DNA of 64,000 nt from a bacterium. Lineage in GTDB: Bacteria > Electryoneota > Electryoneia > Electryoneales > Electryoneaceae. The notes below the pieces were generated by a model that was given only the letters and a program-made list of their open reading frames with translations, did not search any database and was not told the origin of the DNA. Each line of letters begins with the position of its first letter. The first letter of the stretch is position 1. Below, piece by piece: positions 23,001-39,417 of this stretch. The stretch spans positions 8,339 through 72,338 of the forward strand of contig JAHLLH010000014.1 of the NCBI GenBank assembly GCA_020444265.1. The letters run 5' to 3'. Position numbers and translations under genes: made by a program.

Positions 23001-23125
23001 TGGCTTTTGTCATCCTCGGCGGATTGCTTACTGCCACCTTCTTAAACCTCGCAGTCGTTCCCGCGATGTTCATGAAGTGGGGTGTCCAACCCGTGGATGA
23101 AGCAAAACACAAAGCGTATTTCTGA
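20015..23125 (+). CDS. CusA/CzcA-family heavy-metal efflux RND transporter
   Basis: 1036 aa with the heavy-metal-efflux RND architecture (two large periplasmic loops and the conserved GGLAIAIGVLVDDAIIYVEN motif). Confidence 0.9.
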   Translation: MLDRLMRISLRNRLIVLVAALAILIVGTLVTLNMPVDVFPDLTAPTVTILTEAHGMAPEEVENLVTFPIETVVNGASGVRRVRSNSIQGLSTVWVEFDWGTDIYVARQIINEKLQIMRNTLPGGVDQPVLAPITSIMGEIMLVGLTADTTSPMDLRTLAEFTVGRRIQAVPGVSQVLVYGGETRQYQVLVDPYKITARGLTLDEVLDAVQEANINATGGLFISSGQEYLIRGLGRINNIAELKKTVITTEGHVPVLVEDIADVVIGPAFRLGTASINNENGVLLVIAKQPEANTLTLTDNILETLDGLRASLPVDISLHTEIFRQSDFIQTAIDNVLSALGEGAVLVTIILFLFLVNVRTTVISVLAIPLSLVIAFLSLKLLGMSVNTMTLGGLAIAIGVLVDDAIIYVENVYRRIRQNAEVPEADRRPFVDVVADASSEIRSPIAMATFIVIVVFIPLFFLSGVEGRMLKPLGFAYVISILASLLVAVTVTPALSSFLLRNIDQKKEHGDSWFVRQLKKAYEPSLVYFLKHKGIVIGVSAALVVLAISILPFFGRSFLPEFNEGTFNISLATLPGTSLEGSHEIGGMVESILLSNEAVLSTARRTGRTELDEHSLGSHAHELEVQVDLSNISKQELLEQLRSSLTMVQGTNITIGQPISHRIDHMLSGTRAAIAVKLFGPDLYSLRRYAEQIRQEMAEVEGLVDLFVDQQTDVPQVRITVDRERMAMYGLRSADLDELIDVAFLGAKTSQVYEGDHRYDLIVRYAEDYRDDLESIRNTLIDVPTGGAIPLEMVANIREDRGPNYISRENVQRKIVVQANVSGRDLRGAVEEIREKISTNLDLPRGYHVEYGGQFESEEQATRTVLLLSIVSIIAILVVLYLEFGNFRQAFLVMVNLPLALIGGIVSIFFTEGIISIASLVGFITLFGIAVRNGIMMVSHYNHLMNQEGKTLYEAVVQGSMERLSPILMTAMTTGLALIPLAMAADKPGSELQSPMAFVILGGLLTATFLNLAVVPAMFMKWGVQPVDEAKHKAYF

Positions 23126-23237: not shown

Positions 23238-24104
23238 TTAGAAAATCCAGGTGTATCCAAAGAGGGCGGCGACCACGATGTGAATAGCCAGGATGATGAA
23301 CATGACGATGGCGAAGGGACGGTGGATGACATGCCAGTAGTGAAGGATTTTCTGGGAGACCTGGAGGAAACGCATCCGTCGCTTGAGAAGGGTTCGCCGA
23401 CGAACCAGGTCGATGATATCCTTGATTTCCTTATTGCCGAGCGAGGCGCGCTTTTTCAATTCACCCCGTAACCCGGACAACGCAAGACGCAGCCGAACAT
23501 CCTGCCCGATCCAAGTGAAGATAGCTGCGAAACCAGTCTTCCGTTTCGAGACCGGGACAACATCCTCGTGCAGCTTCTCAATCAGTTCCTCGTCCACCCC
23601 GTGCACATCGCGGATCTGCCCCATCAACTCGTCATCGAGTTGTTCGAGCTGCTCGCCGGACATTGCGGCACCGGAGAGGCTGCGTGGAATCTGCAAGTAG
23701 ACATAGCGCCCGAGGAACCCCGACAGGGCCACCGCGAGCATTGACCAGAAGGCAATGGCGACAATGCCGCCGAACTTGAAGGTGGTGTGGAAAATGACCA
23801 GGATCGGCCCGGTGATGCCCATCCAGATATGGACATCCAGCCAGTGACGCAGGTTGCCCCAATCCTGCATGAAACGGAAGTGTTTCCGTGCGATGTAAAG
23901 CAGCAGCATTGACATCAGGATCGCCCCGGCGATGCCGAGCGCGTGCCCGATAAATCCTCCCGCCTTCCAGTCGGTGTGCAGGTCACTGTGGGGACGTTCT
24001 GTCAACGGAAGAGAGTAGTAATCCCAGCCGTGGTAGAGAATCCAGGCTACAACGATGCCGGTCAGGGAATAGAGAAAGATCATCAGAAAGCGGTGGAAGC
24101 GCAT
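23238..24104 (-). CDS. polytopic membrane protein with two bis-His pairs at 14-residue spacing (ferric-reductase-like di-heme-b fold); putative
   Basis: DVHIWMGITGPILVIFH and WHVIHRPFAIVMFIILAIH sit within predicted transmembrane helices. This resembles the His spacing of the FRD, MsrQ and YedZ superfamily. Confidence 0.45.
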   Translation of the reverse strand: MRFHRFLMIFLYSLTGIVVAWILYHGWDYYSLPLTERPHSDLHTDWKAGGFIGHALGIAGAILMSMLLLYIARKHFRFMQDWGNLRHWLDVHIWMGITGPILVIFHTTFKFGGIVAIAFWSMLAVALSGFLGRYVYLQIPRSLSGAAMSGEQLEQLDDELMGQIRDVHGVDEELIEKLHEDVVPVSKRKTGFAAIFTWIGQDVRLRLALSGLRGELKKRASLGNKEIKDIIDLVRRRTLLKRRMRFLQVSQKILHYWHVIHRPFAIVMFIILAIHIVVAALFGYTWIF

Positions 24105-24254
24105 TGGGGAAGATGCCTTTCAACTGGTTTTTTTCACAGCCACTACAATAAGGTACCCCAGCTTGTCTTGCCAAGCCGGGATTTCGTTTTGGTAAAAAGA
24201 GACCCGGCTTGCAAGTCAAGCCGGGGCACCCAGATTATGACCTTCTGTTTCCAG

Positions 24255-25881: not shown

Positions 25882-27411
25882 TCACCGTTCTTTCGGGCTG
25901 TCTATGCGGGCGGGATGCAGGAGACGATCATCCTCGGCCCGTCCATCGGGATGGCAATCATAACAGGCGGCGCTGTCGTAGACATACCCCCCCACATCAT
26001 CGTGCTCATCGTTCATCTCGGACTGACTGTGCTCATGACATGAGATGCAGGTAAACACCTGGTAGTTGCTCGTATTCGGGTGACATTCGGAGCAACTGGC
26101 CCACTCGTTGCGATGTTCTCCCGAGTAGATCGGGAACCACTGGGAATCGTGGTTGAAGTTCGCATTGTCCCAGGAAATCGTATTGTGGCAGCTGTCGCAA
26201 TCCTGCGGGAAGCCCGCGGCAGCATGGTCTGGGTCCGTGGTGGTATTGTAGTCCGCCTCGTGACAAAAGAAGCAGTCCGAAGGGGTGTTGACATACCCCG
26301 CTGTATGGCAGAGGCTGCAATCGAGACCAACATGAGCCCCCGTCAGGGGAAAGTCGGTCTGCGAATGGTCAAAATCGGCATCGTCCCAGGTGACTGTCGA
26401 GTGGCATAATACACAATCAAGCGGGAAGTTTTCCTGCACATGATCGGGATCGGTCGTCCCCTCGAAATCGGCTTGGTGGCAAGCATAACACTCGGATGGT
26501 GTGCCAGTGTAACCAGATGCATGGCATTGGAGACAATCGAGGGGCTGGTGTGCACCAGTCAGCGGAAACGCAGTGTCGTGGTGATCAAAGACGATTCGAT
26601 CCCAACCGAGCGCCGTATGGCAGAGGACACAATCGGTTGGATACTGATCAGCAACATGGTTCGGGTCAGTCGTGCCCTCATAATCCGCCTGGTGACAGGC
26701 ATAGCAGGCGGAGCTACCGATGGTGTAGTCTCCGCCGGTATGGCACTCGACACAGACCAGCAGCGCATGCTGACCAACCAGCGGAAAACCTGTCCGGCCA
26801 TGGTCGAAGATCGACTCTTCCCACTTCTGCACCCCATGACAGCTGCTGCAATCGGCATCGAATCCTGCTTGCACATGGTTGGGGTTGGTGGTCGCCCGGT
26901 AGCTATCCCAGTGGCAGGTCTGGCACGTCGTCGAGAGGGCACGATACTGCCCGGAGGCATGGCACGCCTGGCAGTCCAGCGGCGCATGGACCCCGACCAA
27001 CGGGAACCGTGTCTCCTGGTGCATCAGGCGGAAACGGGACTCATCACTCCAGCCCAAAGGTGAATGGCACTCCTCGCAGGATCGTCCGAATTCGCCACGA
27101 TGGATGTCGGTGTGGCAGGCCGCGCAGTTCGTTGAAACGTCCAGAAAAACAGGATCCGTGTGACACAAGGCGCAGGCGACACCCTTGTGAAATCCTTCTA
27201 ACGGGTAGTTGGTGTCCCTGTCATGGTCGAAGCGCAGCACGGGCAGAAGCTGGTCCCATCCCTCGGTGCCATGGCAGGCGCTGCACTCGAGCTCCATATC
27301 GCCGTGTGGGTTGGTCCCGGTCTGCAACGGCGTGGCGTCAGCAACTCCGACCAGCAGCCCCAACATCAGCACGACGAGGGGGGATCGTCTTGATGTCAAC
27401 AATCGTTTCAT
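25882..27411 (-). CDS. multiheme c-type cytochrome, about 19 CxxCH motifs (MHC3; paralog of the C-terminal part of MHC2)
   Basis: Signal peptide. I counted 19 CxxCH motifs. The C-terminal ~110 aa are nearly identical to the MHC2 C-terminus (...SDCFFCHE.DYN...QWFPIYSGEHRNEW.SCSECHPN...FTCISCHEH...ACYDCHPDGRAEDDRLL). Confidence 0.9.
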   Translation of the reverse strand: MKRLLTSRRSPLVVLMLGLLVGVADATPLQTGTNPHGDMELECSACHGTEGWDQLLPVLRFDHDRDTNYPLEGFHKGVACALCHTDPVFLDVSTNCAACHTDIHRGEFGRSCEECHSPLGWSDESRFRLMHQETRFPLVGVHAPLDCQACHASGQYRALSTTCQTCHWDSYRATTNPNHVQAGFDADCSSCHGVQKWEESIFDHGRTGFPLVGQHALLVCVECHTGGDYTIGSSACYACHQADYEGTTDPNHVADQYPTDCVLCHTALGWDRIVFDHHDTAFPLTGAHQPLDCLQCHASGYTGTPSECYACHQADFEGTTDPDHVQENFPLDCVLCHSTVTWDDADFDHSQTDFPLTGAHVGLDCSLCHTAGYVNTPSDCFFCHEADYNTTTDPDHAAAGFPQDCDSCHNTISWDNANFNHDSQWFPIYSGEHRNEWASCSECHPNTSNYQVFTCISCHEHSQSEMNDEHDDVGGYVYDSAACYDCHPDGRAEDDRLLHPARIDSPKER

Positions 27412-27444: not shown

Positions 27445-30327
27445 TTACCGTTCTTTCGGGCTGTTTATTCGCGGGTGTTTCAGCAGACGATCATCCTCGG
27501 CACGTCCATCCGGGTGGCAGTCATAGCAGGCGCTGCTCTCGTAGATATACCCACCCACATCATCATGCTCGTCATCCATGTCATTCTGGTTGTGCTCGTG
27601 GCAGGAGATGCAGGTGAAGACCAGGTAGTTGTCCGGGTTCGGATGGCACTCGGAACAGCTGTCCCACTCGTTGCGATGTTCCCCGGAATAGATCGGGAAC
27701 CACTGCGCATCGTGGTTGAAATTTGCATCATCCCAGGTCACCGTATTATGGCAACTTTCGCAGGTCTGCGGGAACCCGGCAGACTGATGGTTCGGATCGT
27801 CGGCACCATTGTAGTCATCTTCATGACAGAAGAAGCAGTCTGAAGGCGTATTGGTGTAACCTTGGGAATGACAAAGGTTGCAGTCGAGACCATTGTGCGA
27901 TCCGGTCAACGGCCAGCCCGTGTCGCTATGATCAAACAGTGGCGCACTCCAATCAGCCGTGGTATGGCATTCGGTGCAAACCTGCCCGAAGCCGGCATCG
28001 CTATGGTTCGGGTCGGAAACCCCGTTGTAATCCTCCTCATGGCACGACCAGCAATCAGAGGGGGTGCCGGAAAAACCATCAGCATGGCAAAGATTGCAGT
28101 CAATGGAGGTGTGCGCCCCGGTCAATGGCCAGCCGGTATCACCGTGATCAAACAACGGTGCGTTCCAGTCAGCGGTGGTGTGGCACTCGGTACAATCTTG
28201 TCCGAAGCCGGCATCGCTGTGGTTCGGGTCGGCCACCCCGCTGTAGTCCTCTTCATGGCATGACCAGCAATCTGATGGAGTACCACTGAACATGGTTGCA
28301 TGACAGAGGTTGCAATCGAGTGACGTGTGCGCTCCGGTCAACGGCCATTCAGTGTAGCTGGCATGGTCGAAGTCGTCCGCATCCCAATCCTCTGTCGTGT
28401 GGCACTCGGTGCAGTCGTGTGGGTAGTTCAGCGCCACATGATCCGGATCGTCCGTGCCCTCATAATCCGCCTGGTGGCAGGACCAGCAGTCAGTCGGTGT
28501 GCCGACATAACCATCCGAATGACACAAACTGCAATCGAGAGTACGGTGGGCACCGGTCAACGGGAAATCGGTCTGATCATGGTCGAAGGTGGACTCATCC
28601 CAATCGCTCGTATTGTGGCAGATCGAGCAGTCGGTCGGGAACCCTTCTGCGACATGGTTCGGGTCGTCCGTGCCCTCGTAATCCGCCTGGTGGCAGGCGT
28701 AGCAGTCTGTCGGTGTGCCGGCATAGACACCACCGATGTGACAGAGTGCGCAATCGACATTACGGTGTTCGCCCGTCAAGGGGAAGTTGGTCTGGTCGTG
28801 ATCGAAATCCGCCCCTTCCCAAGTGATCGTCGTGTGACAGAGTGTGCAGTCCATCGGGTAGTTCTGCACCTCGTGGTCCGGATCCTCCGTTCCACGATAA
28901 TCTTCCTCATGGCACGACCAGCAATCATCCGGCGTGTCGGCATAGACCCCTTCAACATGACAGAGGTTGCAGTCGACATTGATGTGCTCACCGGTCAACG
29001 AATAATTGGTCTGGGCATCATGGTTGAAATTCGAGGGGGTCCACTCCGCCGTGGTGTGGCAGAGCGTGCAGTCGAGATCGAAGCTGTCCGGGTTGTGAAT
29101 CGGATCCTCGACCTCGGTGTAATCCGCCTCATGGCAGGAATAGCAATCATATGCGGTACCGTTGAACCCCTCCGCATGACAATCCGCGCACCCCAGTTCC
29201 AGATGGGCACCGTCGATGGTAAAATTGGTTTCGCTATGGTCGAAATCGGCGGGGGTATACGCCATTGTTGTATGGCACATTGTGCAGTCGAAATCGAACG
29301 CACCGTCCACATGGTTCGGGTCGTCCACACTCTCGTAGTCTTCACGGTGACAGCCAACACACTGGTCCGGGGTGCCGGTGTACTGGGCTTCGTGGCAGAG
29401 AGCACAATCGAGCGTCGTATGGGCACCGTCCAAGGGGAAACTGGTCAGGTCATGGTTGACGAAATCCGCCGGGGTCCAGGCGATGGTCGTGTGGCAGAGC
29501 TGGCACATCGTATTGAAGGCCGGACCGCTATGGTCCGGGTCAACTGTTCCTGCGAAGTCAGTATGATGGCAGGCATCGCACTCGTTGGAAACTTCGGTGT
29601 ACGCCTGACCAGCCACATGGCAGAGGGCGCAATCGCGGACAGCATGCCCGCCGGTCAACGGAAAGCTTTGGGTGTGGACAAACTGCACATCCGGGCCACC
29701 CCAATCGCCTCCGCCATCACCGCCAGCCTGGGTGACCCCATGACACTCGCTGCAATCGGTCGGAAAACCAGCCGCTGAATGGTCGGGATCGGTAGTGGAC
29801 TGGTAGGTATCGAGGTGGCAGGTGATGCACTCGGTGGAGAGGTCGCGGTACTCGCCGGACGCATGGCACGCCTGGCAATCGAGACCGGCATGGACCCCGA
29901 CCAGTGGGAACCGTGTCTCCTGGTGCATCTGACGGAACATCGGTTCATCCTGCCAATTCTGCGGCGAATGGCACTGATCGCAGGAGTTCCCGAACTGCCC
30001 CTCGTGGATGTCCGTATGGCAGGAAAAGCAGTCGGTGTCAGCATCACGGAAGACAAGACTCGTGTGGCAGGAGGAGCAGGCTACTTGCCCGTGCTGTCCT
30101 TCGAGCGGGTAACGGGTGTCGGCATCGTGGTTGAACAGGAGGACCGGTAGCAGACGATCCCATCCTTCGGTGCCATGGCAGTCATTGCAAGCCAAATCGA
30201 TCGGACCGTGCGGATTGTCCCCGTTCTGGGTAAACCCGGCAAGGGCCGATGAACCGATTGTCAGCAGGATCAGGCCCGCTAGCAGGACCACGGAGAATGT
30301 TCGCTGCAAAGTCACGTGTCTCATCAT
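27445..30327 (-). CDS. giant multiheme c-type cytochrome, about 37 CxxCH motifs, with internal near-identical tandem repeats (MHC2)
   Basis: I counted 37 CxxCH motifs. A repeating unit of roughly 60 aa (DC.LCH...GTP.DCWSCHEEDY.G..DPNHSDAGFGQ.CTECHTTADW.APLFDH.DTGWPLTG.H) occurs several times. I take the start at MMRHV (30327), which leaves a 28-nt gap to MHC1. Confidence 0.9.
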   Translation of the reverse strand: MMRHVTLQRTFSVVLLAGLILLTIGSSALAGFTQNGDNPHGPIDLACNDCHGTEGWDRLLPVLLFNHDADTRYPLEGQHGQVACSSCHTSLVFRDADTDCFSCHTDIHEGQFGNSCDQCHSPQNWQDEPMFRQMHQETRFPLVGVHAGLDCQACHASGEYRDLSTECITCHLDTYQSTTDPDHSAAGFPTDCSECHGVTQAGGDGGGDWGGPDVQFVHTQSFPLTGGHAVRDCALCHVAGQAYTEVSNECDACHHTDFAGTVDPDHSGPAFNTMCQLCHTTIAWTPADFVNHDLTSFPLDGAHTTLDCALCHEAQYTGTPDQCVGCHREDYESVDDPNHVDGAFDFDCTMCHTTMAYTPADFDHSETNFTIDGAHLELGCADCHAEGFNGTAYDCYSCHEADYTEVEDPIHNPDSFDLDCTLCHTTAEWTPSNFNHDAQTNYSLTGEHINVDCNLCHVEGVYADTPDDCWSCHEEDYRGTEDPDHEVQNYPMDCTLCHTTITWEGADFDHDQTNFPLTGEHRNVDCALCHIGGVYAGTPTDCYACHQADYEGTDDPNHVAEGFPTDCSICHNTSDWDESTFDHDQTDFPLTGAHRTLDCSLCHSDGYVGTPTDCWSCHQADYEGTDDPDHVALNYPHDCTECHTTEDWDADDFDHASYTEWPLTGAHTSLDCNLCHATMFSGTPSDCWSCHEEDYSGVADPNHSDAGFGQDCTECHTTADWNAPLFDHGDTGWPLTGAHTSIDCNLCHADGFSGTPSDCWSCHEEDYNGVSDPNHSDAGFGQVCTECHTTADWSAPLFDHSDTGWPLTGSHNGLDCNLCHSQGYTNTPSDCFFCHEDDYNGADDPNHQSAGFPQTCESCHNTVTWDDANFNHDAQWFPIYSGEHRNEWDSCSECHPNPDNYLVFTCISCHEHNQNDMDDEHDDVGGYIYESSACYDCHPDGRAEDDRLLKHPRINSPKER

Positions 30328-30355
30328 CTTCCCCTTTCCACACTGGGTAAACCAT

Positions 30356-32092
30356 TTACCCGCGTGTCCCCTCCATCTGCGGAACCGTGCTGCCATGGCA
30401 ATCGGAACACTCCATGCCGAGCGGCTTGTAGATCACCATCTCGCTGCCATCGCTTCGCATCACCGGCTTATGGCACTGGTTGCACTCCACCTTGATGTGA
30501 GCACCATCGAGTTGGAATCGGCTATCCCGGTTGTGCACAAATTCCAGCTCCTTCCAGCCCGCAGGCTGGTGGCAACGATCACAGGTGGTCTCGGTTTCGC
30601 CTTGGTCCATTCGTACAAACTGATCGCCGTGGATGTTGTCATGACAGCCGGCGCAGGTCATCTCAAGCGGTTTCATCCAGACAACCTGTTCCCCTTCCTG
30701 CTCAATGGTGTGGCATTCGAGGCAGAGGATTTCGCGGTGCTGTCCTTCGAGCGGGAATCGTGCCAGACTGTGGTCAAAGCTGGTACGATGCCAGGTATCT
30801 GTCGAGTGGCAGTACTCGCAGCCGTTCTTATCGACCCAGATGTTGAGCTGGCCCTGGTGGATGTCCTCATGGCATGCCTGGCAGGTCGTCATCTCCCAGG
30901 CAAACTGGGCATAGCTGCCATCGTCATCCTCCATCACCTGCGCATGGCAGAGGTTGCAGGGAACGGCAAAATGGCTGCCGGTCAGGGGATAGTCCGATTG
31001 CTGGTGCTGCTCAAAGCCATAATCGGCCGGGATGAAGCCCTCTACTGTGTGGCAGCTTTCGCACGCACCACCATCACTGCGCCCAGCGAACTGCCCGCGA
31101 TGTTCATCGTCGTGGCAATCGGTGCACCCGGCGAACTTGAGCGGATCGGTCATCACACCCGTTGTGTGGCACTCCTTGCAGTCAACATCGATATGTTTTC
31201 CACGCAGGGGATAAGTCGTCTTGTCGTGATCAAACTGCTCGTCCTTGACTTGTTGGAAGCTCGCGGTCGTGTGACATTTGGTACAGTTGGCCCCGAAACG
31301 GCCCTCGTGCTTGTCCTCATGACAGTTGACGCAGCTTGAGTACTCGAGGCCCTGGTAGTGCGAATATTGGCCGACATGCTCGGCTTTCTGGAGCAGGTTC
31401 GAATTGACCGCTGGAGCTTCCTGCCAGGGGTGGCATTTTTCGCAGGAGACATCGGTGTGCTTGCCGTCCAAACGGTACTTCGCATCGTCGTGGTTAAACC
31501 CGGATGCCGGGGTCCAGCCCTCCATCGTGTGGCAGGTAAGGCAATCATCGGTGAGTTGATTACGGTGTTCATCGACATGGCAGGTGACACACGCTTTGTC
31601 CAGGCCGAGGTGGGTACGATCCTTGTCGATGCTGTCATCGTTCCCGAAACGATCCGCCTGCTGGAACCGTGCCACATGACAATCGGCACAATCTTCTTCC
31701 GCATGCTTGCCTTCGAGGGGATACCCGGTCAGGGTGTGGTCAAAGTTGTCCTGTCCCTCTGTCCAGAAAATGAGCTCGTAATCCCGTCCGTGATGTTCCG
31801 AGTGGCACGATGCGCAGGTTTTATCCGTGACCTCAGCGGAAGCATGGTAGCCGCTGCCCTCATCCATCCGGGTTTGGATGGCAGTATGGCAGACAAGACA
31901 CTTCTCGTTGGTCACCGCCTCACCCAGCTGGTGGCAGTTGGTGCAGTTGCGGATCCCTTCCAGCTCTTCATGATAGCCGGACAGCTTACCGGGAGAAATC
32001 TGGGCCAGTGATGGCACCGCCCAAAGCAGCATTAATGCCACAATGGACATGCTTCGTGTCCAGCACCCAGTACCCTGCCGCATGTTCTTCAT
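30356..32092 (-). CDS. multiheme c-type cytochrome, about 20 CxxCH motifs (MHC1)
   Basis: Signal peptide MKNMRQGTGCWTRSMSIVALMLLWAVPSLAQ. I counted 20 CxxCH motifs. Confidence 0.9.
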   Translation of the reverse strand: MKNMRQGTGCWTRSMSIVALMLLWAVPSLAQISPGKLSGYHEELEGIRNCTNCHQLGEAVTNEKCLVCHTAIQTRMDEGSGYHASAEVTDKTCASCHSEHHGRDYELIFWTEGQDNFDHTLTGYPLEGKHAEEDCADCHVARFQQADRFGNDDSIDKDRTHLGLDKACVTCHVDEHRNQLTDDCLTCHTMEGWTPASGFNHDDAKYRLDGKHTDVSCEKCHPWQEAPAVNSNLLQKAEHVGQYSHYQGLEYSSCVNCHEDKHEGRFGANCTKCHTTASFQQVKDEQFDHDKTTYPLRGKHIDVDCKECHTTGVMTDPLKFAGCTDCHDDEHRGQFAGRSDGGACESCHTVEGFIPADYGFEQHQQSDYPLTGSHFAVPCNLCHAQVMEDDDGSYAQFAWEMTTCQACHEDIHQGQLNIWVDKNGCEYCHSTDTWHRTSFDHSLARFPLEGQHREILCLECHTIEQEGEQVVWMKPLEMTCAGCHDNIHGDQFVRMDQGETETTCDRCHQPAGWKELEFVHNRDSRFQLDGAHIKVECNQCHKPVMRSDGSEMVIYKPLGMECSDCHGSTVPQMEGTRG

Positions 32093-32122
32093 GGTCCTTC
32101 TACCCCCTGCTGCCCAGTTCGG

Positions 32123-33436
32123 TCAAGATTCCCCGAATTTCCGTGTGAACTGCACGCCAACTCGCTCCAGAAACGCCGTCGGCAACTCCCCACCCGCGAA
32201 GATGAAAACCTGGTCATTGGGCAGTGTCACTGTCTCGCCAGCCTTGTCGAGGATGACTGCATCATCGAGGATTTCTTTCACCTCGGACAGCAAAATGAGT
32301 TCGATCTTGCCAGACTCTACCGCCTTGTCGAGACGATCTTTGTTGCCTTCTTTGATACGGAAAATGCGGTCACGGCGGTAGGAAAGATGGACCGTGTTGC
32401 CCTCTACATCGCTCAGGGCTACCGCCGCTTCCACTGCGCTGTCACCTCCACCGACCACGAGAATGTTTAGGTCGTGGTACTTCTCCGGATTCAGCATCCG
32501 GTAAGCGACCTTTGAAGCTTTTTCCCCCGGGCAGCCCAGTTTACGCGGGCTGCCGCGACGTCCAATCGCGAGCAGCACACGTTTTGCCTCGAACGTCTCG
32601 CCTTGCGCTGTGGTCACTGTGAAATGACCATTCGTTTTCTCGACCGTTTCCACCTTCTGTCCGGCATGCACCTTTAAATCGGCCACGCTGAAGATTTCGC
32701 TGAAGAGCTCCAGCAGTTTTTCTTTTTGCACTTCACGCAGTTTCAGTTTGCCGTAGATCGGCAAATCAACAGGTCGTGTCATCACCAGCTTACGTCGCGG
32801 ATAGGTGAGGACTGTTCCGCCCAGATCTTCCTGATCGACAATCGCAAAGTTTATCTTCTCGGTCCGTGCCGCCAACGCCGCACCCAACCCCGCTGGTCCT
32901 GCACCGACAATCACCAGGTCGAGCACTTTCTCCGCTCGTTTCTTCTCGTCTAGGCTCTTCGCGATGAACTGCGCCGCCTGGATGCCCTGGGTCATCGCAT
33001 TGCGAATCAACCCCATTCCACCCAGTTCACCAGCAATGTAGACTCCAGCCACATTCGTTTCGAATGTGCCCTTCAAGTGAGGGATGTCCACCCCTCGTTT
33101 TTCCGTGCCAAAGACGAGGGAAATTGCCTCTACCGGACAGGCGGCATGGCACATCCCATGGCCGATGCAGCGTGATGGATTGATCAAAGCACCGCGGTTG
33201 TTGATCAGGCCGAGCACATCCTGTTCAGGACAGGCACGGACACAAGCGCCGGAACCAATGCAGGTGTTGGGGTCAATCACGGGATGGAGGGAGACCGGTT
33301 CATCGAGGCCGAGTTCGATGGCCTTCTTCAGGGTGGTGGCCGCTTTCTCACTTTTGCGACGTTCCCGCAGCCAGTAGAGTGCGGGCACAAGAATGGTCAG
33401 CAAACCGACAACGACATAGATTAACACCTCGAGCAC
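32123..33436 (-). CDS. membrane-anchored fusion of a 2x[4Fe-4S] ferredoxin and an FAD/NAD(P)-binding oxidoreductase
   Basis: N-terminal transmembrane helix, two 4Fe-4S motifs (CIGSGACVRACP and CIGHGMCHAACP), then pyridine-nucleotide-disulfide-oxidoreductase Rossmann motifs (VIVGAGPAGLGAA and ILVVGGGDSAVEAA). First gene of the cytochrome operon. Confidence 0.8.
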   Translation of the reverse strand: MLEVLIYVVVGLLTILVPALYWLRERRKSEKAATTLKKAIELGLDEPVSLHPVIDPNTCIGSGACVRACPEQDVLGLINNRGALINPSRCIGHGMCHAACPVEAISLVFGTEKRGVDIPHLKGTFETNVAGVYIAGELGGMGLIRNAMTQGIQAAQFIAKSLDEKKRAEKVLDLVIVGAGPAGLGAALAARTEKINFAIVDQEDLGGTVLTYPRRKLVMTRPVDLPIYGKLKLREVQKEKLLELFSEIFSVADLKVHAGQKVETVEKTNGHFTVTTAQGETFEAKRVLLAIGRRGSPRKLGCPGEKASKVAYRMLNPEKYHDLNILVVGGGDSAVEAAVALSDVEGNTVHLSYRRDRIFRIKEGNKDRLDKAVESGKIELILLSEVKEILDDAVILDKAGETVTLPNDQVFIFAGGELPTAFLERVGVQFTRKFGES

Positions 33437-33673
33437 GGCCGCCTCAGAGTTAGGGAATCAGAACACTGAAACCTAAATAAATCTCAGGTATTCAGCACGG
33501 CTGCGATCCCCCCGACTGCCATTTCCAGCCCGCCGTATATATTCCTGCTAATTCTCTATAAAATATGGAATAGCAAATAGATGTGCTGCTGACAACACAG
33601 TGTTTTACTCTCCTAACAACAAAAATAAACGGGGGCTAAACTCCCTGTCACCTCCTTCTCTTCTTTGTCTAAA

Positions 33674-33701
33674 TCAACGGCTGCGCAGAAGCGCAGCCGT
33701 T
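33674..33701 (-). terminator. terminator hairpin downstream of the RND2 gene (CAACGGCTGCGC agaa GCGCAGCCGTTG)
   Basis: Perfect 12-bp stem in the region between the RND2 stop and the promoter region of the cytochrome operon. Confidence 0.5.
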
Positions 33702-33745
33702 GGTCATACTTTAACGGTGTAATTTAGGAGTTGTAAGATTGCCGC

Positions 33746-36700
33746 TCATCTTGGATCAACCTTCATCCTTGATTCGAGTCGTCCCTCGAACCACTTGTAG
33801 AAGGCTGGTAGCACGAGCAGGGTCAGCAAGGTCGAGGTAACGAGGCCACCGACAACGACGGTCGCCAGGGGACGCTGCACCTCGCTACCGGTACCAGTCG
33901 CGAAGAGCAACGGGGTCAGGCCGAGGGCAGTGGTGACAGCGGTCATCAGCACGGCACGCATTCTAAGCATGGCGGCCTTGACCGACGCCTCGTCCAGCGC
34001 AATACCTTCCTTTCGTAACCCGTTCAGGGTGCTCAGCAGGACCATGCCGTTCTCGAGCGCTATCCCGAACAGGGCGATAAACCCTACCGATGAAGGCACC
34101 GACAGGTTCTGCCCGCTGATCCACAGCGCAAGAATGCCACCCACAAGTGCAAGGGGAATATTGAGCAAAATCAGCAGGGTGTTTTTCAGCGAATTGAAGC
34201 TTGTGTAAAGAAGCAGCGTAATGAGCAGCAGGGTAATCGGTACTACCACAGCAAGCCGTTTGTTGGCCTCCTGCTGCAAACGGAACTGCCCACCCCAAGT
34301 CACCAGGTAGCCAGCAGGCAAATCAACCTCCCTGGCGATCACCTGCTCTGCTTCAGCGACGAACGACCCGATGTCACGTTCTTCGACATTACACTGGATC
34401 GAGATGAAGCGTTGGTTGTCCTCACGTGTAATCTGTCGTGGGCCAGTAATGGTCTGGACATCCGCAAGCTGATCCAACGGCACCAGCAATCCGTCCGGAG
34501 TTGGTACAAGGATCGAACGAATCGCCTCTGGTGTACTACGTGCCTCCTCACGGTAGCGAACGACGATGTCGAAGCGACGAATCCCTTCGAAAATCTGACC
34601 CGCTTCCTCGCCGCCAACCGCCGCCGCAACCACTTCCTGGACATCTGCGATTGGAACACCGTAGCGAGCAATCGCTTCACGGTCAATTTGTACAAGTAAC
34701 TGAGGGGTGCCGCTAATCTGATCGACCTGGACATCACGAGCGCCGGGTACGGTTTGCAGCGCAAGGGCAATCTCATCAGCAGATGCTTTCAGCTGATCAA
34801 GATCATCGCCAAATAGTTTCACGGCCAGTTCTGCCTTCACCCCTTCCAGCAACTCATCGATGGTGGCCGCAATGGGCTGTGTGAAGCTGACGCGAGTCCC
34901 TGGGACATTACCAAGATCACCACGGATCAGGTCGACCAACTCCGGCTGGCTGCTTACACGCCACGTCGATTCATCGCTCAGCAACACGTACATTTCGACA
35001 CTGTTAACCGGATCGGTATGAGCGCCAACTTCCCCTCGTCCAATCCGGCTGACCACCTCTTCGACTTCGGGAATATCCATCAGGCGACGTTCCACAATCA
35101 TCGCCATCCGTTTGCTCTCCTCCAGCGCGATGGAGGGCGCCAGGGTGAGCCGGATCAGGAGGGTGCCCTCCTGAAGCTGAGGAGTAAACTCACTGCCGAG
35201 CTGGGTTACCCCAACACCACCCGTCAGCAACAGCACCACCACCAGCAGTACGGCCAGGCTTCGTCGTGAGATGAACTTTCGCAGCAGTGGTTCATAGAGT
35301 CGATTGAGCCCATTGATCATCTTCGACGAAACGGATCTGTCCCTTGAGCGATATCGTCTCCTCATCAACAAACTCGCCAGCACTGGCACCGCAACAATTG
35401 CATAGACTAACGATCCCGCCATCGCATAACCGATAGTCCAGGCCAGTGGACGGAACGTCTTCCCTTCCACGCCCTGCAAAGTCATGATCGGCGAGAAGAC
35501 AACGAGAATAATCAGGATCGAAAAGGTGACGGGACGCAGCACTTCGCCTGCGGCATCGAGGACAATTTGCCTGCGGTCCCCCATTCCCGAACTCTGCTGC
35601 AAACGTCGGTCAATGTTCTCGACCAGCACGACGGCACCATCGACCATCATCCCGATAGCAATCGCCAGTCCACCGAGCGACATCAGGTTGGCGGAAATAC
35701 CGGTTTGACGCATCAGCAGGAAAGCAAACAGCACGGAGAAAGGGATCGAGAGTGCAACGACAAGGCTGGGACGCCATCCGCCCATGAAGAGCAGGATGAC
35801 TAGAATGACAAGGACAACGCCTTGGCCCAGGGCGGAAAGAACGGTTGATACCGCAGCATCGACCAGACTTTTCTGGTCGTAATAGGGAACGATCCGGACC
35901 CCTTCTGGTAGAATCGTGTTGACCTCGTCCAGCTTCTTCTCAACTCGTTCAATCACAGACGAGGTGTTGCTTCCAAATAGTTTGATCACCTGCCCTGCAA
36001 CCACCTCTTCCACACCATTGTGGGTCTGGAGGCCACGACGTATCGCGCCACCTTCACGCACGTTGGCGATGTCATGAAGGTGGATCGGCACACCATCCAC
36101 CGACTTGACCACAACTCGATTCAGGTCATCAATACTTTTGGCCAAGCCAACTGAGCGGACGATATACTCTTCCGCGTTCTCCTCGACAAACTGCGCGCCG
36201 GTGTTGAGGTTGTTGGCTTTCAACGCCTCCACCACCTCGTGCAGACGGATGCCATACCTCAGCAGGGATGCGGGATCCACCACCACCTGGAATTGCTTCT
36301 CCCAGCCACCGATTCCAAGTACTTCGGTAACACCTGGTACGGTCTGGAGGTGGTACTTGATCAACCAATCCTGGATGCTGCGCAGCTCGGTCAGGGAACG
36401 TGTTCCGGTGGTATCCTCGAGGTAGTAGAAGAGGACGAGGCCCATTCCGGTCGAGATCGGTCCCATCTCCGGGTCACCAAAGCCTTCCGGGATCTGGTCA
36501 CGCGCCTCCTGCAAGCGTTCGTTGACCAATTGCCGTGCGAAGTAGATGTCCACGTCATCCTCGAAGTAGACATTCACCACCGACAGCCCGAAGTTGGAAA
36601 CCGAACGTACTTTTGTCAGGCCCGGCAAGCCGTTCATCACCGTTTCAACTGGATAGGTGATGTAGGTTTCCACCTCTTCCGGCGCCAATCCCTCGGTGAC

Positions 36701-36853
36701 GGTAAATACTTGCACCAGGTTGGGCGAGACATCCGGGAAGGCATCAACAGGCAGATCTCGGTAGGCTATCCAGCCCGCTCCCATGGTCAGCAGAAACAGC
36801 ACCACCACAAGCAGACGACCGGAGAGAGCGGATCGTACAATTCGATTCAGCAT
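33746..36853 (-). CDS. CusA/CzcA-family heavy-metal efflux RND transporter (second, paralogous copy)
   Basis: 1035 aa, same architecture and motifs as 20015..23125 (GGLAIAIGMMVDGAVVLVEN). Confidence 0.9.
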   Translation of the reverse strand: MLNRIVRSALSGRLLVVVLFLLTMGAGWIAYRDLPVDAFPDVSPNLVQVFTVTEGLAPEEVETYITYPVETVMNGLPGLTKVRSVSNFGLSVVNVYFEDDVDIYFARQLVNERLQEARDQIPEGFGDPEMGPISTGMGLVLFYYLEDTTGTRSLTELRSIQDWLIKYHLQTVPGVTEVLGIGGWEKQFQVVVDPASLLRYGIRLHEVVEALKANNLNTGAQFVEENAEEYIVRSVGLAKSIDDLNRVVVKSVDGVPIHLHDIANVREGGAIRRGLQTHNGVEEVVAGQVIKLFGSNTSSVIERVEKKLDEVNTILPEGVRIVPYYDQKSLVDAAVSTVLSALGQGVVLVILVILLFMGGWRPSLVVALSIPFSVLFAFLLMRQTGISANLMSLGGLAIAIGMMVDGAVVLVENIDRRLQQSSGMGDRRQIVLDAAGEVLRPVTFSILIILVVFSPIMTLQGVEGKTFRPLAWTIGYAMAGSLVYAIVAVPVLASLLMRRRYRSRDRSVSSKMINGLNRLYEPLLRKFISRRSLAVLLVVVLLLTGGVGVTQLGSEFTPQLQEGTLLIRLTLAPSIALEESKRMAMIVERRLMDIPEVEEVVSRIGRGEVGAHTDPVNSVEMYVLLSDESTWRVSSQPELVDLIRGDLGNVPGTRVSFTQPIAATIDELLEGVKAELAVKLFGDDLDQLKASADEIALALQTVPGARDVQVDQISGTPQLLVQIDREAIARYGVPIADVQEVVAAAVGGEEAGQIFEGIRRFDIVVRYREEARSTPEAIRSILVPTPDGLLVPLDQLADVQTITGPRQITREDNQRFISIQCNVEERDIGSFVAEAEQVIAREVDLPAGYLVTWGGQFRLQQEANKRLAVVVPITLLLITLLLYTSFNSLKNTLLILLNIPLALVGGILALWISGQNLSVPSSVGFIALFGIALENGMVLLSTLNGLRKEGIALDEASVKAAMLRMRAVLMTAVTTALGLTPLLFATGTGSEVQRPLATVVVGGLVTSTLLTLLVLPAFYKWFEGRLESRMKVDPR

Positions 36854-36862
36854 ACTCCCTCC

Positions 36863-38077
36863 CTAGTGAGCGTGACCATCGCCAAATGCGCTTTTACCCT
36901 GCTCAGCCTTCAGTACGAACGCATTGTCTGACACATAGGTCTGGCCTGCCTCAAGCCCTTCCCTGATCTCAAGCAAGGAGCCATTTTCCATCCCGATCTG
37001 AACCTGCACCGGGTGGTATTCATCCCCCTCCTGAACGTAAAGGTGCGGTTCGTTCTCGAGCTGGACGAGGGCAGACTTGGGGACTGCTACCGCCACTTCG
37101 ACAGGTTCGGTGAAGACATGGATGGTGACAAACAGGCCGGGGTTGAACCGCCCGTCAACGTTGTCGATTTCGGCACGGACTCGCGCGGTACGAGTCTCTT
37201 CCCCGACAATGGGTCCCACGTAGTCGAGATAGCCTTCCGCTGTTGGAATGCCGTATCCTGCATCAATGCGCACCTTCATCCCTTTCCGAACCAACCCGAG
37301 ATCGCGTGGATAGAGGTCGCCTTCCACCCAAACCCTCGACAGATCGGCGATGACAAACCCTTCATCCATATCTCCGACACGCTGGCCATTCACCAGAGAC
37401 CGCCGAATCACTTCACCATCCATCGGGGCACGGAGTTCGTAATGGGAGAGTTCGAGGTTCTCCTCCTTCGGCAGCCTCGCAATACGATCCTCATCAATGT
37501 TCATGGCGTGCAGGGTCTGCTCCGCTGTACGCAGCTCGATTCGCGCCTGTTGAAGATCGCGTTCCGCAGACTGCAGCTCTTCGACCGAGGTGATCCCATC
37601 ATCATGCAATGATTTCACGCGCTGGTAGTTGGAATCGGCAAGACGCAGTTGTTCGAGGCTTTCGAGGTAGATCGATTTGGCGTCGGCAAGCTGCTGGCTG
37701 TGCAACACAGCGAGGACATCGCCCGCGCGTACATGATCTCCCTCACGTACGTTAATCTTCCAGACATTCCCCGGGACCAATGGTGTGACATGAGCCATAC
37801 GGTCCGTGTTAATCCGTACGTCGCCGGGGAGATCGATCTCGCGGTAGAGAGTCCCACTTCCGGCAATGGCGAGCTGGATGCCGAATTCCTCCAGCTGGTC
37901 CAGAGTGAAATGAACACCACTTTCACCCTCCTCATGATCATCAATCTCACCCGCTTCTTGCTCGTGGTCATGACCCTCATGGGAGTCGATCTCGTGGTTG
38001 CTTCGAGAACATCCTGCCAGTAAAAGCACAAGGGCGAGGAAGGCAATCCCTCGTATCGTCTTCATGTATGTCATCAT
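36863..38077 (-). CDS. efflux RND periplasmic adaptor (membrane-fusion protein) with His-rich termini
   Basis: Lipoprotein signal (LLLAGCS), N-terminal HEIDSHEGHDHEQEAGEIDDHEEGESG, C-terminal GDGHAH. Paralog of 18411..19985. Confidence 0.85.
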   Translation of the reverse strand: MMTYMKTIRGIAFLALVLLLAGCSRSNHEIDSHEGHDHEQEAGEIDDHEEGESGVHFTLDQLEEFGIQLAIAGSGTLYREIDLPGDVRINTDRMAHVTPLVPGNVWKINVREGDHVRAGDVLAVLHSQQLADAKSIYLESLEQLRLADSNYQRVKSLHDDGITSVEELQSAERDLQQARIELRTAEQTLHAMNIDEDRIARLPKEENLELSHYELRAPMDGEVIRRSLVNGQRVGDMDEGFVIADLSRVWVEGDLYPRDLGLVRKGMKVRIDAGYGIPTAEGYLDYVGPIVGEETRTARVRAEIDNVDGRFNPGLFVTIHVFTEPVEVAVAVPKSALVQLENEPHLYVQEGDEYHPVQVQIGMENGSLLEIREGLEAGQTYVSDNAFVLKAEQGKSAFGDGHAH

Positions 38078-39324
38078 CGGATATTCTCCCCCTCTTCGGG
38101 TTGCAGAATGGAACGACCCGAGAGGCTGTCAAGGGTGATGTGAGTGTGAACGAGATCGCGCAGGGTGTCGAGGTAGTCAAGACGACGTTCCAGCCAGGTG
38201 CGTTGTGCAACCAACACATCCACATAGGATGCCCGCCCGGCCGCGTAACTGGTTCGCGCAAGAGTGAGGACCTGCTCGCTGGTTGGCAGCAGAGTGGTTT
38301 GGAAGGTGGAAGCACGTTCTCGCCTCGCGAGATAGACCTCGACCTGCTCCTCCCAATCTGCCTGCATTTCGAGTTCAAGTTGACGGGTGTCGCTTTGGGC
38401 AATCCGTTCCCGCGCCACCGCCGCTTGATGTTCTCCGACTCCACCTAAGGCGAACCAGAAGGGGATACTCATCCCGATCTCGCCCCCCCATTGGGAAGCT
38501 TCTGAATCCGTCGGGAGATGCTGACGAAACCCACGTATCTCGAAGGTCGGCAACCAACCGTTCGCGGCGATGGTCCGATCTCGTTCACGAGCGGTTACTT
38601 CTTGTCTCGACCACATCAGTCTGGGGCTTCTCTGCCACTCCGTCGACAGTGCCTCGGGTAGCCAGATAGAATCATAGGGAGCCGCCAGTGGCCGACGAGG
38701 ATCGTCCTGACCGGTCAAGGCTTTCAAATGTGCCCAGCAACCCTTCAGACGAGCTCGTTCAACCTGTAAATCCGCTTGAACCTCAGCCGCTTCGGCATGG
38801 GCACGGCTCGCATCAAGGTCCGGGATTCGACCCACCTCATTCATGCGCTGGAATGTGTTCGCCTGGCTGTCAACACTAGCGGCAAAGGTTGTCAAGATCA
38901 CCAGGCGTTCCTGCTCATACCAGGCATCTGCAAAGGCACGTCTCACCTGGTGCTCGAGGTCGAGCAGCATGCTCTTCCGCTGCTGACGCGCCGATTCGAC
39001 TCGAGCATTTTCCCGCTGCAACCGCCAGACCGTACGCAAAGGAAAATCAAAGTCCTGCTGAACTGCGATCCGTCGCTCTTCATACTCACCGAACCCCGCA
39101 CCGGAAGGAATCCCTTCCAGCTCGTAGCTCACTTTTGGTGCTTCCGGGGAAAGGGTAGCACGTCTTGTACCATGTGCTTCTGCTTCGATCGCATCAGCTC
39201 GTTCACTTGCCGGGTGGTTCTCCAGCGCCGCGCGAGCGGCCTGCTGGACAGTCCAGGGAGTGGTGGCAGCGGCCATACTCCAACCCATGACCAGACCCAG
39301 GACGACCACAAACAATCGTCTCAT
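38074..39324 (-). CDS. TolC-family outer membrane efflux protein (CzcC-like), cluster 2
   Basis: Signal peptide MRRLFVVVLGLVMGWSMAAA. Overlaps the start of the membrane-fusion gene. Paralog of 17173..18399. Confidence 0.8.
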   Translation of the reverse strand: MRRLFVVVLGLVMGWSMAAATTPWTVQQAARAALENHPASERADAIEAEAHGTRRATLSPEAPKVSYELEGIPSGAGFGEYEERRIAVQQDFDFPLRTVWRLQRENARVESARQQRKSMLLDLEHQVRRAFADAWYEQERLVILTTFAASVDSQANTFQRMNEVGRIPDLDASRAHAEAAEVQADLQVERARLKGCWAHLKALTGQDDPRRPLAAPYDSIWLPEALSTEWQRSPRLMWSRQEVTARERDRTIAANGWLPTFEIRGFRQHLPTDSEASQWGGEIGMSIPFWFALGGVGEHQAAVARERIAQSDTRQLELEMQADWEEQVEVYLARRERASTFQTTLLPTSEQVLTLARTSYAAGRASYVDVLVAQRTWLERRLDYLDTLRDLVHTHITLDSLSGRSILQPEEGENIR

Positions 39325-39417
39325 GATATACAACCTCTGTTCACCGACAGAGATTTCCCATCGGTGGATGTTCACGTAAACCGTTTAAAGTCAATTTGAA
39401 TAAAGGAGGAGCTGAGA

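Follow-up and report, generated by a model that had tools for sequence, protein, structure and literature searches.

A conserved membrane-anchored Fe-S flavoprotein of PCC3-type porin-cytochrome clusters, a candidate cytoplasmic redox subunit of the conduit

The 64-kb stretch of DNA analysed here (64,000 nucleotides; contig JAHLLH010000014.1 of assembly GCA_020444265.1, positions 8,339 to 72,338; hereafter the window) comes from a bacterium of the family Electryoneaceae and contains a cluster of genes for very large multiheme cytochromes. The first gene of this cluster (32123-33436) encodes a predicted membrane-anchored Fe-S flavoprotein, termed FLV here, and the last one a membrane protein with five transmembrane (TM) helices, IMP. 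Judged by its motifs and gene content, the cluster is a PCC3-type porin-cytochrome cluster. The locus thus adds a further lineage to a known but uncharacterised cluster type, with FLV as a conserved fifth component that is absent from the PCC3 descriptions we found. An earlier note on this DNA had seen the cytochrome operon as such and had not recognised it as PCC3. What is established here for FLV and IMP is their domain content and motifs, their predicted topology, and the conservation of their synteny and fusions. On balance, we consider it somewhat probable that FLV is the cytoplasmic redox subunit of the PCC3-type conduit and that it forms, together with IMP, a NOX-like NAD(P)H:cytochrome oxidoreductase in two parts, which works without quinones.

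Linkage of FLV with IMP and multiheme cytochromes

Synteny on the FLV side was assessed in 82 genome loci, in 74 of which the FLV gene was called (46-64% identity). These loci represent Bacteroidota, Ignavibacteria, Alpha-, Beta- and Gammaproteobacteria, Gemmatimonadota, Planctomycetota, Nitrospirota, Nitrospinota, Myxococcota, Zixibacteria and others. Multiheme cytochromes are encoded within 9.5 kb of FLV in 64 of the 74 loci and IMP in 59, where it is the immediate neighbour in 44. Across homologous loci the commonest neighbour is a 20-24-heme protein of 520-640 amino acids (aa), while unrelated neighbours from the window recur in at most four loci. The gene order varies between groups. In Bacteroidota and Ignavibacteria, IMP is followed by FLV, a 20-23-heme cytochrome, a 13-70-heme cytochrome and the porin; in Proteobacteria the arrangement is divergent, with IMP, two multiheme cytochromes and the porin read in one direction and FLV in the other; in the window, FLV comes first and IMP last. 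The linkage of FLV, IMP and cytochromes has thus outlived rearrangement. The position at the head of the operon, to which the earlier note had drawn attention, is a property of this lineage, as the IMP gene usually precedes FLV elsewhere.

The same association was recovered from the IMP side. FLV was found in 25 of 28 IMP-selected metagenome loci that have flanks of at least 2.5 kb to either side; in most cases it lies on the same strand, 3-60 bp downstream. Furthermore, the two proteins occur as single polypeptides in 30 of the 150 best representatives at 50% identity, 26 in the order FLV-IMP and four in the order IMP-FLV, and all of these fusions except P0283 (595 aa) retain both W-x3-H-x13-H motifs of IMP. 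Three fusions checked on their contigs were exact translations with adjoining multiheme cytochromes. Both fusion orders fit the predicted topologies of FLV and IMP. No FLV-IMP fusion was found among the first 82 genome loci, where long open reading frames (ORFs) in L031, L060 and L063 were rejected as fusions because of over-extended starts. Taken as a whole, these three independent sequence-based lines, namely FLV-side synteny, IMP-side synteny and fusions, strongly indicate that FLV belongs to the PCC3 system. The association is seen in more than ten bacterial phyla.

Two further representatives join FLV to a multiheme cytochrome, P0272 (945 aa, 20 CxxCH motifs) and P0379 (721 aa, 10 motifs). 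They could be real fusions or lost stop codons. In P0272, the signal-peptide-like segment of the cytochrome would act as a second TM helix.

Assignment of the cluster to PCC3

PCC3 was defined bioinformatically as a set of a porin, an extracellular multiheme cytochrome (median 34 hemes), a periplasmic multiheme cytochrome (median 21 hemes) and IMP (He et al. 2017, PMC5566968). According to this definition, IMP has about 300 aa and five TM helices, with SGxxG on TM4 and W-x3-H-x13-H on TM3 and TM5, and it was proposed to hold two b hemes, akin to a ferric-reductase domain (PMC5566968). The IMP of the window carries W88-x3-H92-x13-H106 in helix 3, S128-G-x2-G132 in helix 4 and W257-x3-H261-x13-H275 in helix 5, all of them invariant over 24 sequences. 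Its AlphaFold2 (AF2) model (pLDDT 81) contains five long membrane helices running from N-in to C-out. We assign the cluster to PCC3 because its IMP matches every published motif, together with the heme counts and the set of neighbours. In agreement with this, an Amphritea locus selected by FLV (L079) carries the pair of 63-heme and 21-heme cytochromes cited by He et al.

The published PCC3 hosts are Alpha-, Beta- and Gammaproteobacteria, including Gallionellaceae, Leptothrix, Amphritea and others (PMC5566968). The first PCC3 clusters came from iron oxidisers, and they continue to be regarded as candidate iron oxidases. FAD, ferredoxin and thioredoxin are nowhere mentioned in the text of He et al. 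(PMC5566968), and later papers repeat the four-gene description with function unknown. Our literature search for a flavoprotein of the FLV type with multiheme clusters returned nothing closer than ptd/PCC4; it covered few subscription journals, and an earlier description is possible. Genes next to the two PCC3 clusters of Sideroxydans lithotrophicus ES-1 (Slit_1445, Slit_0871) are not listed in the ES-1 transcriptome supplements.

Domain architecture of FLV

The FLV ORF is a real gene, as it is identical to the NCBI entry MCB2201001.1, 'NAD(P)-binding domain-containing protein [bacterium]', located on a MAG contig of 93 kb, and has homologs down to E 1e-269. Its GTG start lies six bases after GAGG. 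The features of FLV and its partner are as follows.

32123..33436, minus strand: FLV, the gene of the earlier note, from an ORF call; predicted membrane-anchored Fe-S flavoprotein of 437 aa
33371..33433, minus strand: predicted TM helix of FLV, aa 2-22; hydropathy 2.48; predicted N-out/C-in; helix pLDDT about 90
33107..33286, minus strand: ferredoxin-like domain of FLV, aa 51-110; two three-Cys motifs, C59/C65/C69 and C90/H93/C96/C100
32942..33103, minus strand: FAD segment of FLV, aa 112-165, C-terminal in YpdA/TrxR; GxxxAGE/D FAD-binding motif, here GVYIAGELGGMGLI
32132..32923, minus strand: dinucleotide-binding domains of FLV, aa 172-435, for FAD (GAGPAG) and NAD(P) (GGGDSA ... YRRDxxFRxK), YpdA/TrxR type
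23238..24104, minus strand: IMP, 288 aa, five-TM membrane protein with four histidines; proposed di-heme b carrier and FLV partner

Structurally, FLV consists of an N-terminal helix, a ferredoxin-like domain and a flavin part. The domain searches that the earlier note had called for place a Fer4 dicluster at aa 51-106 (Fer4_10, 45.6 bits against a threshold of 25.5, with Fer4_2, Fer4_6, Fer4 and Fer4_21 likewise above the Pfam threshold). The note had read this region as di-[4Fe-4S], with two complete Cys-x2-Cys-x2-Cys-x3-Cys-Pro motifs; each motif has three cysteines instead. Motif 1 is C59-IG-S62-GA-C65-VRA-C69-P and motif 2 is C90-IG-H93-GM-C96-HAA-C100-P, which gives six cysteines rather than the eight ligands of two full CxxCxxCxxxCP motifs. 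Among 73 FLV homologs, the second position of motif 2 is His in all, and that of motif 1 varies (S 34, T 19, C 16, A 3, G 1). With six cysteines, an invariant His93 and a variable position 62, the combination of a Cys3His cluster and a three-Cys site ([3Fe-4S] or O-ligated 4Fe) appears more likely than two standard [4Fe-4S] clusters.

The flavin part shows the two Rossmann motifs given in the earlier note, GAGPAG (aa 178-183) and GGGDSA (aa 329-334), within Pyr_redox_3 and Pyr_redox_2 matches at aa 173-431 (Pfam, E 1e-41 and 3e-30). The closest solved relatives of aa 172-435 are 7a7b (sequence E 7e-27; Foldseek 4e-22), 2zbw, 3f8p and 6gar, and TrxR entries of the PDB match at E 1e-9 to 1e-15; the Foldseek probability is 1.0. 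Upstream of this region, aa 112-165 match positions 336-390 of the Pfam GIDA profile, aa 120-141 align weakly to YpdA 275-296, and G136, E137 and G139-I144 are at least 95% conserved. Since the FAD segment that is C-terminal in YpdA and TrxR thereby precedes the first Rossmann motif, this domain of FLV is circularly permuted. Y353-R354...R360-x-K362 is also at least 95% conserved, at a position that we take to be that of the HRRxxxR NADPH 2'-phosphate motif of TrxR.

The name thioredoxin-reductase-like flavoenzyme is apt for the fold and the closest relatives, YpdA and TrxR, but not for the scores, which stay far below the curated cut-offs (YpdA/Bdr, TIGR04018, 157 against 340 bits; TrxR, TIGR01292, 90.9 against 343), nor for a CxxC motif, which FLV lacks. 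CxxC occurs in one of 76 FLV sequences, the whole flavin part holds a single cysteine, and the position of YpdA Cys14 (GGGPCG motif) is Ala in 67 of 69 homologs. In the absence of a redox-active cysteine, a disulfide substrate is unlikely. An unrelated housekeeping oxidoreductase (a thioredoxin or bacillithiol-disulfide reductase, or a ferredoxin-NADP reductase) standing beside the cytochromes by chance has next to no probability in our view: homologs do bear database names such as 'thioredoxin reductase' and 'Ferredoxin--NADP reductase', and YpdA and TrxR are the best PDB relatives, but the score deficits and the missing catalytic cysteines speak against this reading, and synteny across phyla and fusions exclude chance adjacency. 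The reading is effectively refuted, and a thiol-disulfide function of FLV is rejected.

The architecture, which the earlier note had called unusual, belongs to a very large family with thousands of homologs. At least 8000 clusters share the same architecture of about 435 aa, at least 569 stretches match FLV in a scan of one genome per species, and the N-terminal 170 aa alone match 197 representatives at 50% identity with E<=1e-30.

Topology of FLV

The N-terminal TM helix claimed by the earlier note is borne out by a hydrophobic stretch at about aa 2-22 that is modelled as a helix. Five K/R residues lie within 15 aa past it. In 19 of 19 aligned FLV members, the helix is followed by 3-7 K/R within 15 residues, and in 18 of 19 it is preceded by 0-5 neutral or acidic residues. 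No twin-arginine (Tat) motif was found in the 19 aligned members. Owing to the positive charge past the helix and the lack of this motif, both the Fe-S and the flavin domain are predicted to be cytoplasmic. A periplasmic flavin domain, which the earlier note would have counted against electron entry through FLV, is rejected on the same grounds.

Properties of IMP

Beyond its motifs, IMP has no conserved cysteine in the 24 sequences. Pfam matches in these members are sub-threshold, to Ferric_reduct in 13 of 24 (helices 2-3; 24.6-26 bits against a cut-off of 28 in the three matching members with listed scores) and to DUF4405 in 12 of 24 (helix 5). Heme b binding has been shown experimentally for a DUF4405 protein (PMC11334425). 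A search of NCBIfam with IMP returned nothing, and the IMP alignment profile gave spurious EF-hand matches in PDB sequences, to the cytoplasmic loop alone.

This loop is a highly basic, helical cytoplasmic insertion of about 110 aa between helices 4 and 5 (aa 136-250), poorly conserved except for D202, R242 and L247. Classical ferric-reductase domains have no insertion of this kind. It is a candidate docking surface for the Fe-S domain of FLV.

Proposed mechanism and its alternatives

We postulate that FLV and the four-histidine IMP, although encoded at opposite ends of the window cluster, would act as one unit. FLV would be anchored by its single N-out/C-in helix with the Fe-S and FAD/NAD(P) domains facing the cytoplasm. 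Together, the two proteins would correspond in topology to a NADPH oxidase or ferric reductase divided between TM5 and TM6, with a circularly permuted flavoprotein of the YpdA/TrxR type and two Fe-S clusters in place of the usual FNR-type dehydrogenase. Electrons would enter from NAD(P)H and pass through FAD to the Fe-S clusters, one Cys3His and one three-Cys. As the lone anchor helix of FLV cannot carry them across the membrane, IMP has to, and the path would lead from the Fe-S clusters to an inner and then an outer heme b of IMP. From there, the 20-heme cytochrome would span the periplasm and deliver the electrons through the porin to the 37-heme and 19-heme extracellular cytochromes and finally to an external acceptor. 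The quinone pool would not be used.

In this scheme, we infer heme b binding by the window IMP, NAD(P)H as the substrate, direct electron transfer from FLV to IMP and the outward direction. Outward flow is favoured because NAD(P)H is a low-potential donor and electron export runs with the membrane potential. It is also consistent with hosts that are for the most part heterotrophs and with the finding that S. lithotrophicus ES-1 down-regulates PCC3 on Fe(II). The earlier note had proposed that electrons enter the conduit directly instead of through a quinol dehydrogenase. This core is strongly supported by synteny, by fusions and by the lack of any other cytochrome c in the window; the note had missed the IMP partner, and its NAD(P)H donor and outward flow are part of the proposal rather than of the observations.

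Several points weigh against our scheme. The published PCC3 model has IMP exchanging electrons with the quinone pool (PMC5566968), and PCC3 clusters are discussed as iron oxidases, that is, with inward flow. Every Pfam match of IMP to heme-b families is below the gathering threshold, and a Foldseek search of the IMP model against the PDB gave nothing meaningful (best E 0.8; GPCRs, ABC transporters). In the wider family, the anchor helix of FLV shows weak conservation (mean 0.39; Y21 0.87), and the AF2 model of FLV is of moderate quality, with a pLDDT of 74 overall and about 50 for the Fe-S domain. In the window, the IMP gene lies 3' of a terminator and thus probably has its own transcript. Some 10-15% of the fully flanked FLV loci have neither a cytochrome nor IMP nearby, e.g. 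L064 (Burkholderiales) and L045. Finally, the FLV family is known from genes and predicted models alone.

A quinone-linked function would extend the model of He et al. (2017). IMP would then be a quinol- or quinone-active cytochrome b and FLV would feed or drain the quinone pool, for example as an NAD(P)H:quinone oxidoreductase, with no direct contact between FLV and the hemes of IMP. The published placement of IMP at the quinone pool (PMC5566968) agrees with this, as do the membrane anchor of FLV and its Pyr_redox_2 match, which puts it in the superfamily with two dinucleotide-binding domains that includes NDH-2. We nevertheless regard it as unlikely. The 30 independent FLV/IMP fusions and the coupling of the genes at 3-60 bp argue for a physical unit rather than a diffusible pool. 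Moreover, NDH-2 enzymes have no Fe-S clusters, whereas FLV places an Fe-S domain, with an invariant His ligand, exactly between its anchor helix and its flavin domain. No quinone-site motif was noticed, though no search aimed at one was made. We hold reverse flow to be a little more doubtful still: an external donor (Fe(II) minerals, a cathode or a partner cell) would pass electrons through the cytochromes and IMP to FLV, which would reduce NAD(P)+ or a ferredoxin-type acceptor for biosynthesis. The history of PCC3 as a candidate iron oxidase points that way, the IMP of one PCC3 copy is up in Sideroxydans CL21 cells able to oxidise iron, and multiheme conduits are reversible in principle. However, reduction of NAD(P)+ (about -320 mV) from Fe(II) couples would be strongly uphill, and inward electrons would oppose the membrane potential with no energy-coupling element evident. 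Both PCC3 clusters of S. lithotrophicus ES-1 are, in fact, down-regulated on Fe(II), and most sampled hosts are Bacteroidota, Ignavibacteria or Calditrichota-like heterotrophs rather than lithotrophs.

The strict co-occurrence of FLV and IMP with unusually heme-rich cytochromes would also suit a role in biogenesis or maintenance, in which the pair supplies reducing power across the membrane for assembling cytochromes of 20-70 hemes, e.g. by keeping heme iron or apocytochromes reduced, outside steady-state respiration. Known cytochrome c maturation systems include the reduction of heme by a membrane protein that carries heme b. Even so, we give this role only a slim chance. A thiol relay is excluded, since neither IMP nor the flavin part of FLV has a conserved cysteine; reading the IMP sequence, we saw no WWD-type heme-handling motif; and the FLV-cytochrome fusions P0272 and P0379 suggest direct electron delivery.

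Comparison with known systems

The cluster in the window resembles PCC3 in its periplasmic cytochrome of about 21 hemes, its larger extracellular cytochrome, its putative porin and its motif-matching IMP (20, 37 and 19 hemes in the window). PCC3 as described by He et al. has four genes, is proteobacterial and is modelled as delivering electrons to the quinone pool, whereas the window cluster adds FLV as a conserved fifth component, and the cluster type reaches a Calditrichota-like bacterium and many non-proteobacterial phyla. PCC4, or ptdABCDEFG, comprises a porin, multiheme cytochromes, a ferric-reductase-like five-TM protein and cytoplasmic proteins with FAD/NAD(P)-binding and 2x[4Fe-4S] domains, with function unknown (He et al. 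2017; bioRxiv 10.1101/2023.11.21.568154). As proposed for FLV-IMP, a ferric-reductase-like membrane protein is paired with FAD/NAD(P) and Fe-S functions. In contrast to FLV, the Ptd flavoprotein and Fe-S protein each have a gene of their own. PCC4 also lacks an extracellular cytochrome, and its cytochromes are small, with 4, 5 and 10 hemes. Between PCC3 and PCC4, the IMPs have no significant sequence similarity (He et al. 2017, PMC5566968).

The proposed unit would follow the general plan of the NADPH oxidase/ferric reductase family. In NOX, FRE and the bacterial SpNOX, and in the two-component MsrQ-Fre system, electrons pass from cytoplasmic NAD(P)H through flavin and a stack of two b hemes, whose His ligands come in pairs from TM3 and TM5, to an acceptor on the opposite side. 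In the models, IMP (five TM, N-in/C-out) plus the FLV helix (N-out/C-in) would reproduce the layout of six TM helices and a cytoplasmic dehydrogenase, and IMP has the four-His pattern on two helices, with Ferric_reduct matches below threshold and no Foldseek match. The dehydrogenase differs, as FLV is not the FNR type (FAD_binding_8/NAD_binding_6) that follows TM6 but a permuted YpdA/TrxR type with Fe-S. In the window it is encoded as a polypeptide of its own; 30 of 150 representatives carry it in fused form. Electrons would be accepted by a multiheme cytochrome and not by O2, Fe(III) chelates or MsrP. With YpdA/Bdr, TrxR and the TrxR-type ferredoxin-NADP reductases, FLV shares the FAD and NADPH dinucleotide-binding domains of the TrxR fold. 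It differs from YpdA and TrxR in lacking a Cys14 equivalent or CxxC, in the N-terminal position of the C-terminal FAD segment and in the added TM helix and Fe-S domain.

CymA/NapC, ImcH and CbcL, the inner-membrane quinol dehydrogenases of Shewanella and Geobacter, belong to the c-type (or b plus c-type) cytochromes. They hold the same position in the conduit, between the cytoplasmic membrane and the periplasmic multiheme cytochromes. FLV-IMP differs in having no c-heme motif and a nucleotide-binding flavoprotein on the cytoplasmic side, and neither CymA/NapC nor ImcH nor CbcL occurs in the window. Apart from the three large cytochromes (20, 37 and 19 motifs), the window holds no CxxCH-rich ORF, and a tetraheme protein of the NapC/CymA type is therefore not encoded there, in line with the earlier note.

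Organisation of the cluster in the window

The remaining features of the locus are listed below in the direction of transcription.

33675..33702, minus strand: hairpin, likely terminator; 12 bp, GC-rich, directly 3' of the stop codon of the RND pump gene
33622..33651, minus strand: candidate sigma-70-like promoter, GTGACA-18-TATTTT, 9/12 matches, by consensus match alone
30356..32092, minus strand: 20-heme cytochrome c, 578 aa with signal peptide, 20 CxxCH; counterpart of the PCC3 periplasmic cytochrome
27445..30396, minus strand: 37-heme cytochrome c, 37 CxxCH; counterpart of the PCC3 extracellular cytochrome
25882..27411, minus strand: 19-heme cytochrome c; shortened paralog of the 37-heme protein, 49-53% identity
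24255..25877, minus strand: putative outer-membrane beta-barrel (porin), 540 aa, secreted, with signal peptide; conserved position
24203..24225, minus strand: intrinsic terminator 3' of the porin gene; 9-bp stem with 7 GC pairs and UCUCUUUUU tail

FLV is separated from the upstream RND operon by an AT-rich gap of 309 nt, which contains the candidate promoter. The hairpin at 33675..33702 has a minimum free energy of -28.2 kcal/mol (z = -4.07; none of 200 shuffles folds equally well) and likely separates the RND operon from the FLV gene. Its U-tract is weak (AUUUAG), and a scan for consensus terminators accordingly gave no call. The gap between FLV and the gene of the 20-heme cytochrome is exactly 30 nt (32093-32122), as the earlier note had given it, and is unstructured (z = 0.09). 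The note would have abandoned co-transcription if FLV had a promoter and terminator of its own. No hairpin was found in the 30-nt junction; the hairpins lie after the RND gene and, as an intrinsic terminator, after the fifth gene of the run. From sequence, the operon structure is thus compatible with co-transcription of FLV and the cytochromes.

The three neighbouring cytochromes are all secreted proteins. The 19-heme and 37-heme cytochromes have both termini in common. By alignment of these paralogs, the true start of the 37-heme protein is probably M24 (about 30327), and with this start the apparent 41-nt overlap with the 20-heme gene vanishes. The porin candidate has homologs in 31 loci, always after the cytochromes, and these homologs end in ...F, as in the beta-signal of outer-membrane proteins (OMPs). 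No family match was found for it (NCBIfam gave nothing).

The cluster is flanked by two RND (AcrB-family) efflux systems, at 20015-23125 (plus strand) and 33746-39375 (minus strand). The latter is a complete operon of OMP, membrane fusion protein and RND pump. Neither system is conserved beside FLV elsewhere (at most 4 of 82 loci).

Variants among homologous loci

FLV homologs P0307, P0308, P0334, P0335, P0338, P0339, P0341, P0351, P0360, P0366, P0382 and P0386 have about 980-1380 aa owing to a long C-terminal extension with neither heme motifs nor IMP. Only the extension of P0307 was read; it begins as a proline-rich or disordered stretch and continues as TPR-like sequence. The subfamily suggests that FLV can be wired to something besides IMP. 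Flanks of up to 9.5 kb contain neither cytochrome nor IMP in L064, L045 and L069, where they are full, and in L059, L060, L077 and L082, where the contig is cut on one or both sides. For such partnerless copies, which are mostly proteobacterial, either the partner genes lie elsewhere or FLV has another role.

An ORF of about 650-790 aa lies directly downstream of FLV in ten loci (L028, L032, L038, L042, L050, L056, L061, L074, L079, L080), of which eight are proteobacterial, one is from Myxococcota (L061) and one from Planctomycetota (L074). In the two that were scanned with Pfam (L038 and L032), two Sel1 repeats accompany many ankyrin repeats, and the C-terminus reads ...LFGLF/LGLF, an ending shared by the ORF of L028. 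The Sel1/ankyrin ORF has no counterpart in the window. In L048, the main cluster is followed closely by a second IMP with a 10-heme cytochrome; L007 has two adjacent IMP-like ORFs, and L015 carries, on the opposite strand, an extra FLV-like ORF of 320 aa that has no Fe-S motifs.

Implications for PCC3 clusters

PCC3 is counted in genome surveys as putative iron-oxidation machinery, and the sole link to metabolism published for it is a membrane protein active with quinones. With its predicted cytoplasmic location, its conservation and its occasional fusion to the membrane partner, an NAD(P)-binding Fe-S flavoprotein such as FLV offers a concrete, testable answer to the metabolic connection of PCC3 and changes the model of how PCC3 connects to metabolism. 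The system is also extended to Bacteroidota, Ignavibacteria, Calditrichota-like bacteria and others. Tests by biochemistry and genetics are made practical by the single-chain fusions and by cultured carriers, among them Emticicia aquatica CECT 8858, Thermobacterium salinum, Flavobacteriaceae CP2B, Undibacterium sp. Ji22W and Leptothrix cholodnii SP-6. More tentatively, and with the odds somewhat against it, FLV-IMP may be a previously unrecognised NOX-like class of prokaryotes, an Fe-S flavocytochrome b, split or fused, that drives quinone-independent export of electrons from NAD(P)H via cytochromes of 20 to 70 hemes in more than 10 phyla, including aerobic Bacteroidota. FLV points toward such export rather than iron oxidation, which would fit the lack of induction by Fe(II) in Sideroxydans ES-1. 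If this is true, the PCC3 clusters that at present count as candidate iron oxidases would be extracellular reductases powered by NAD(P)H.

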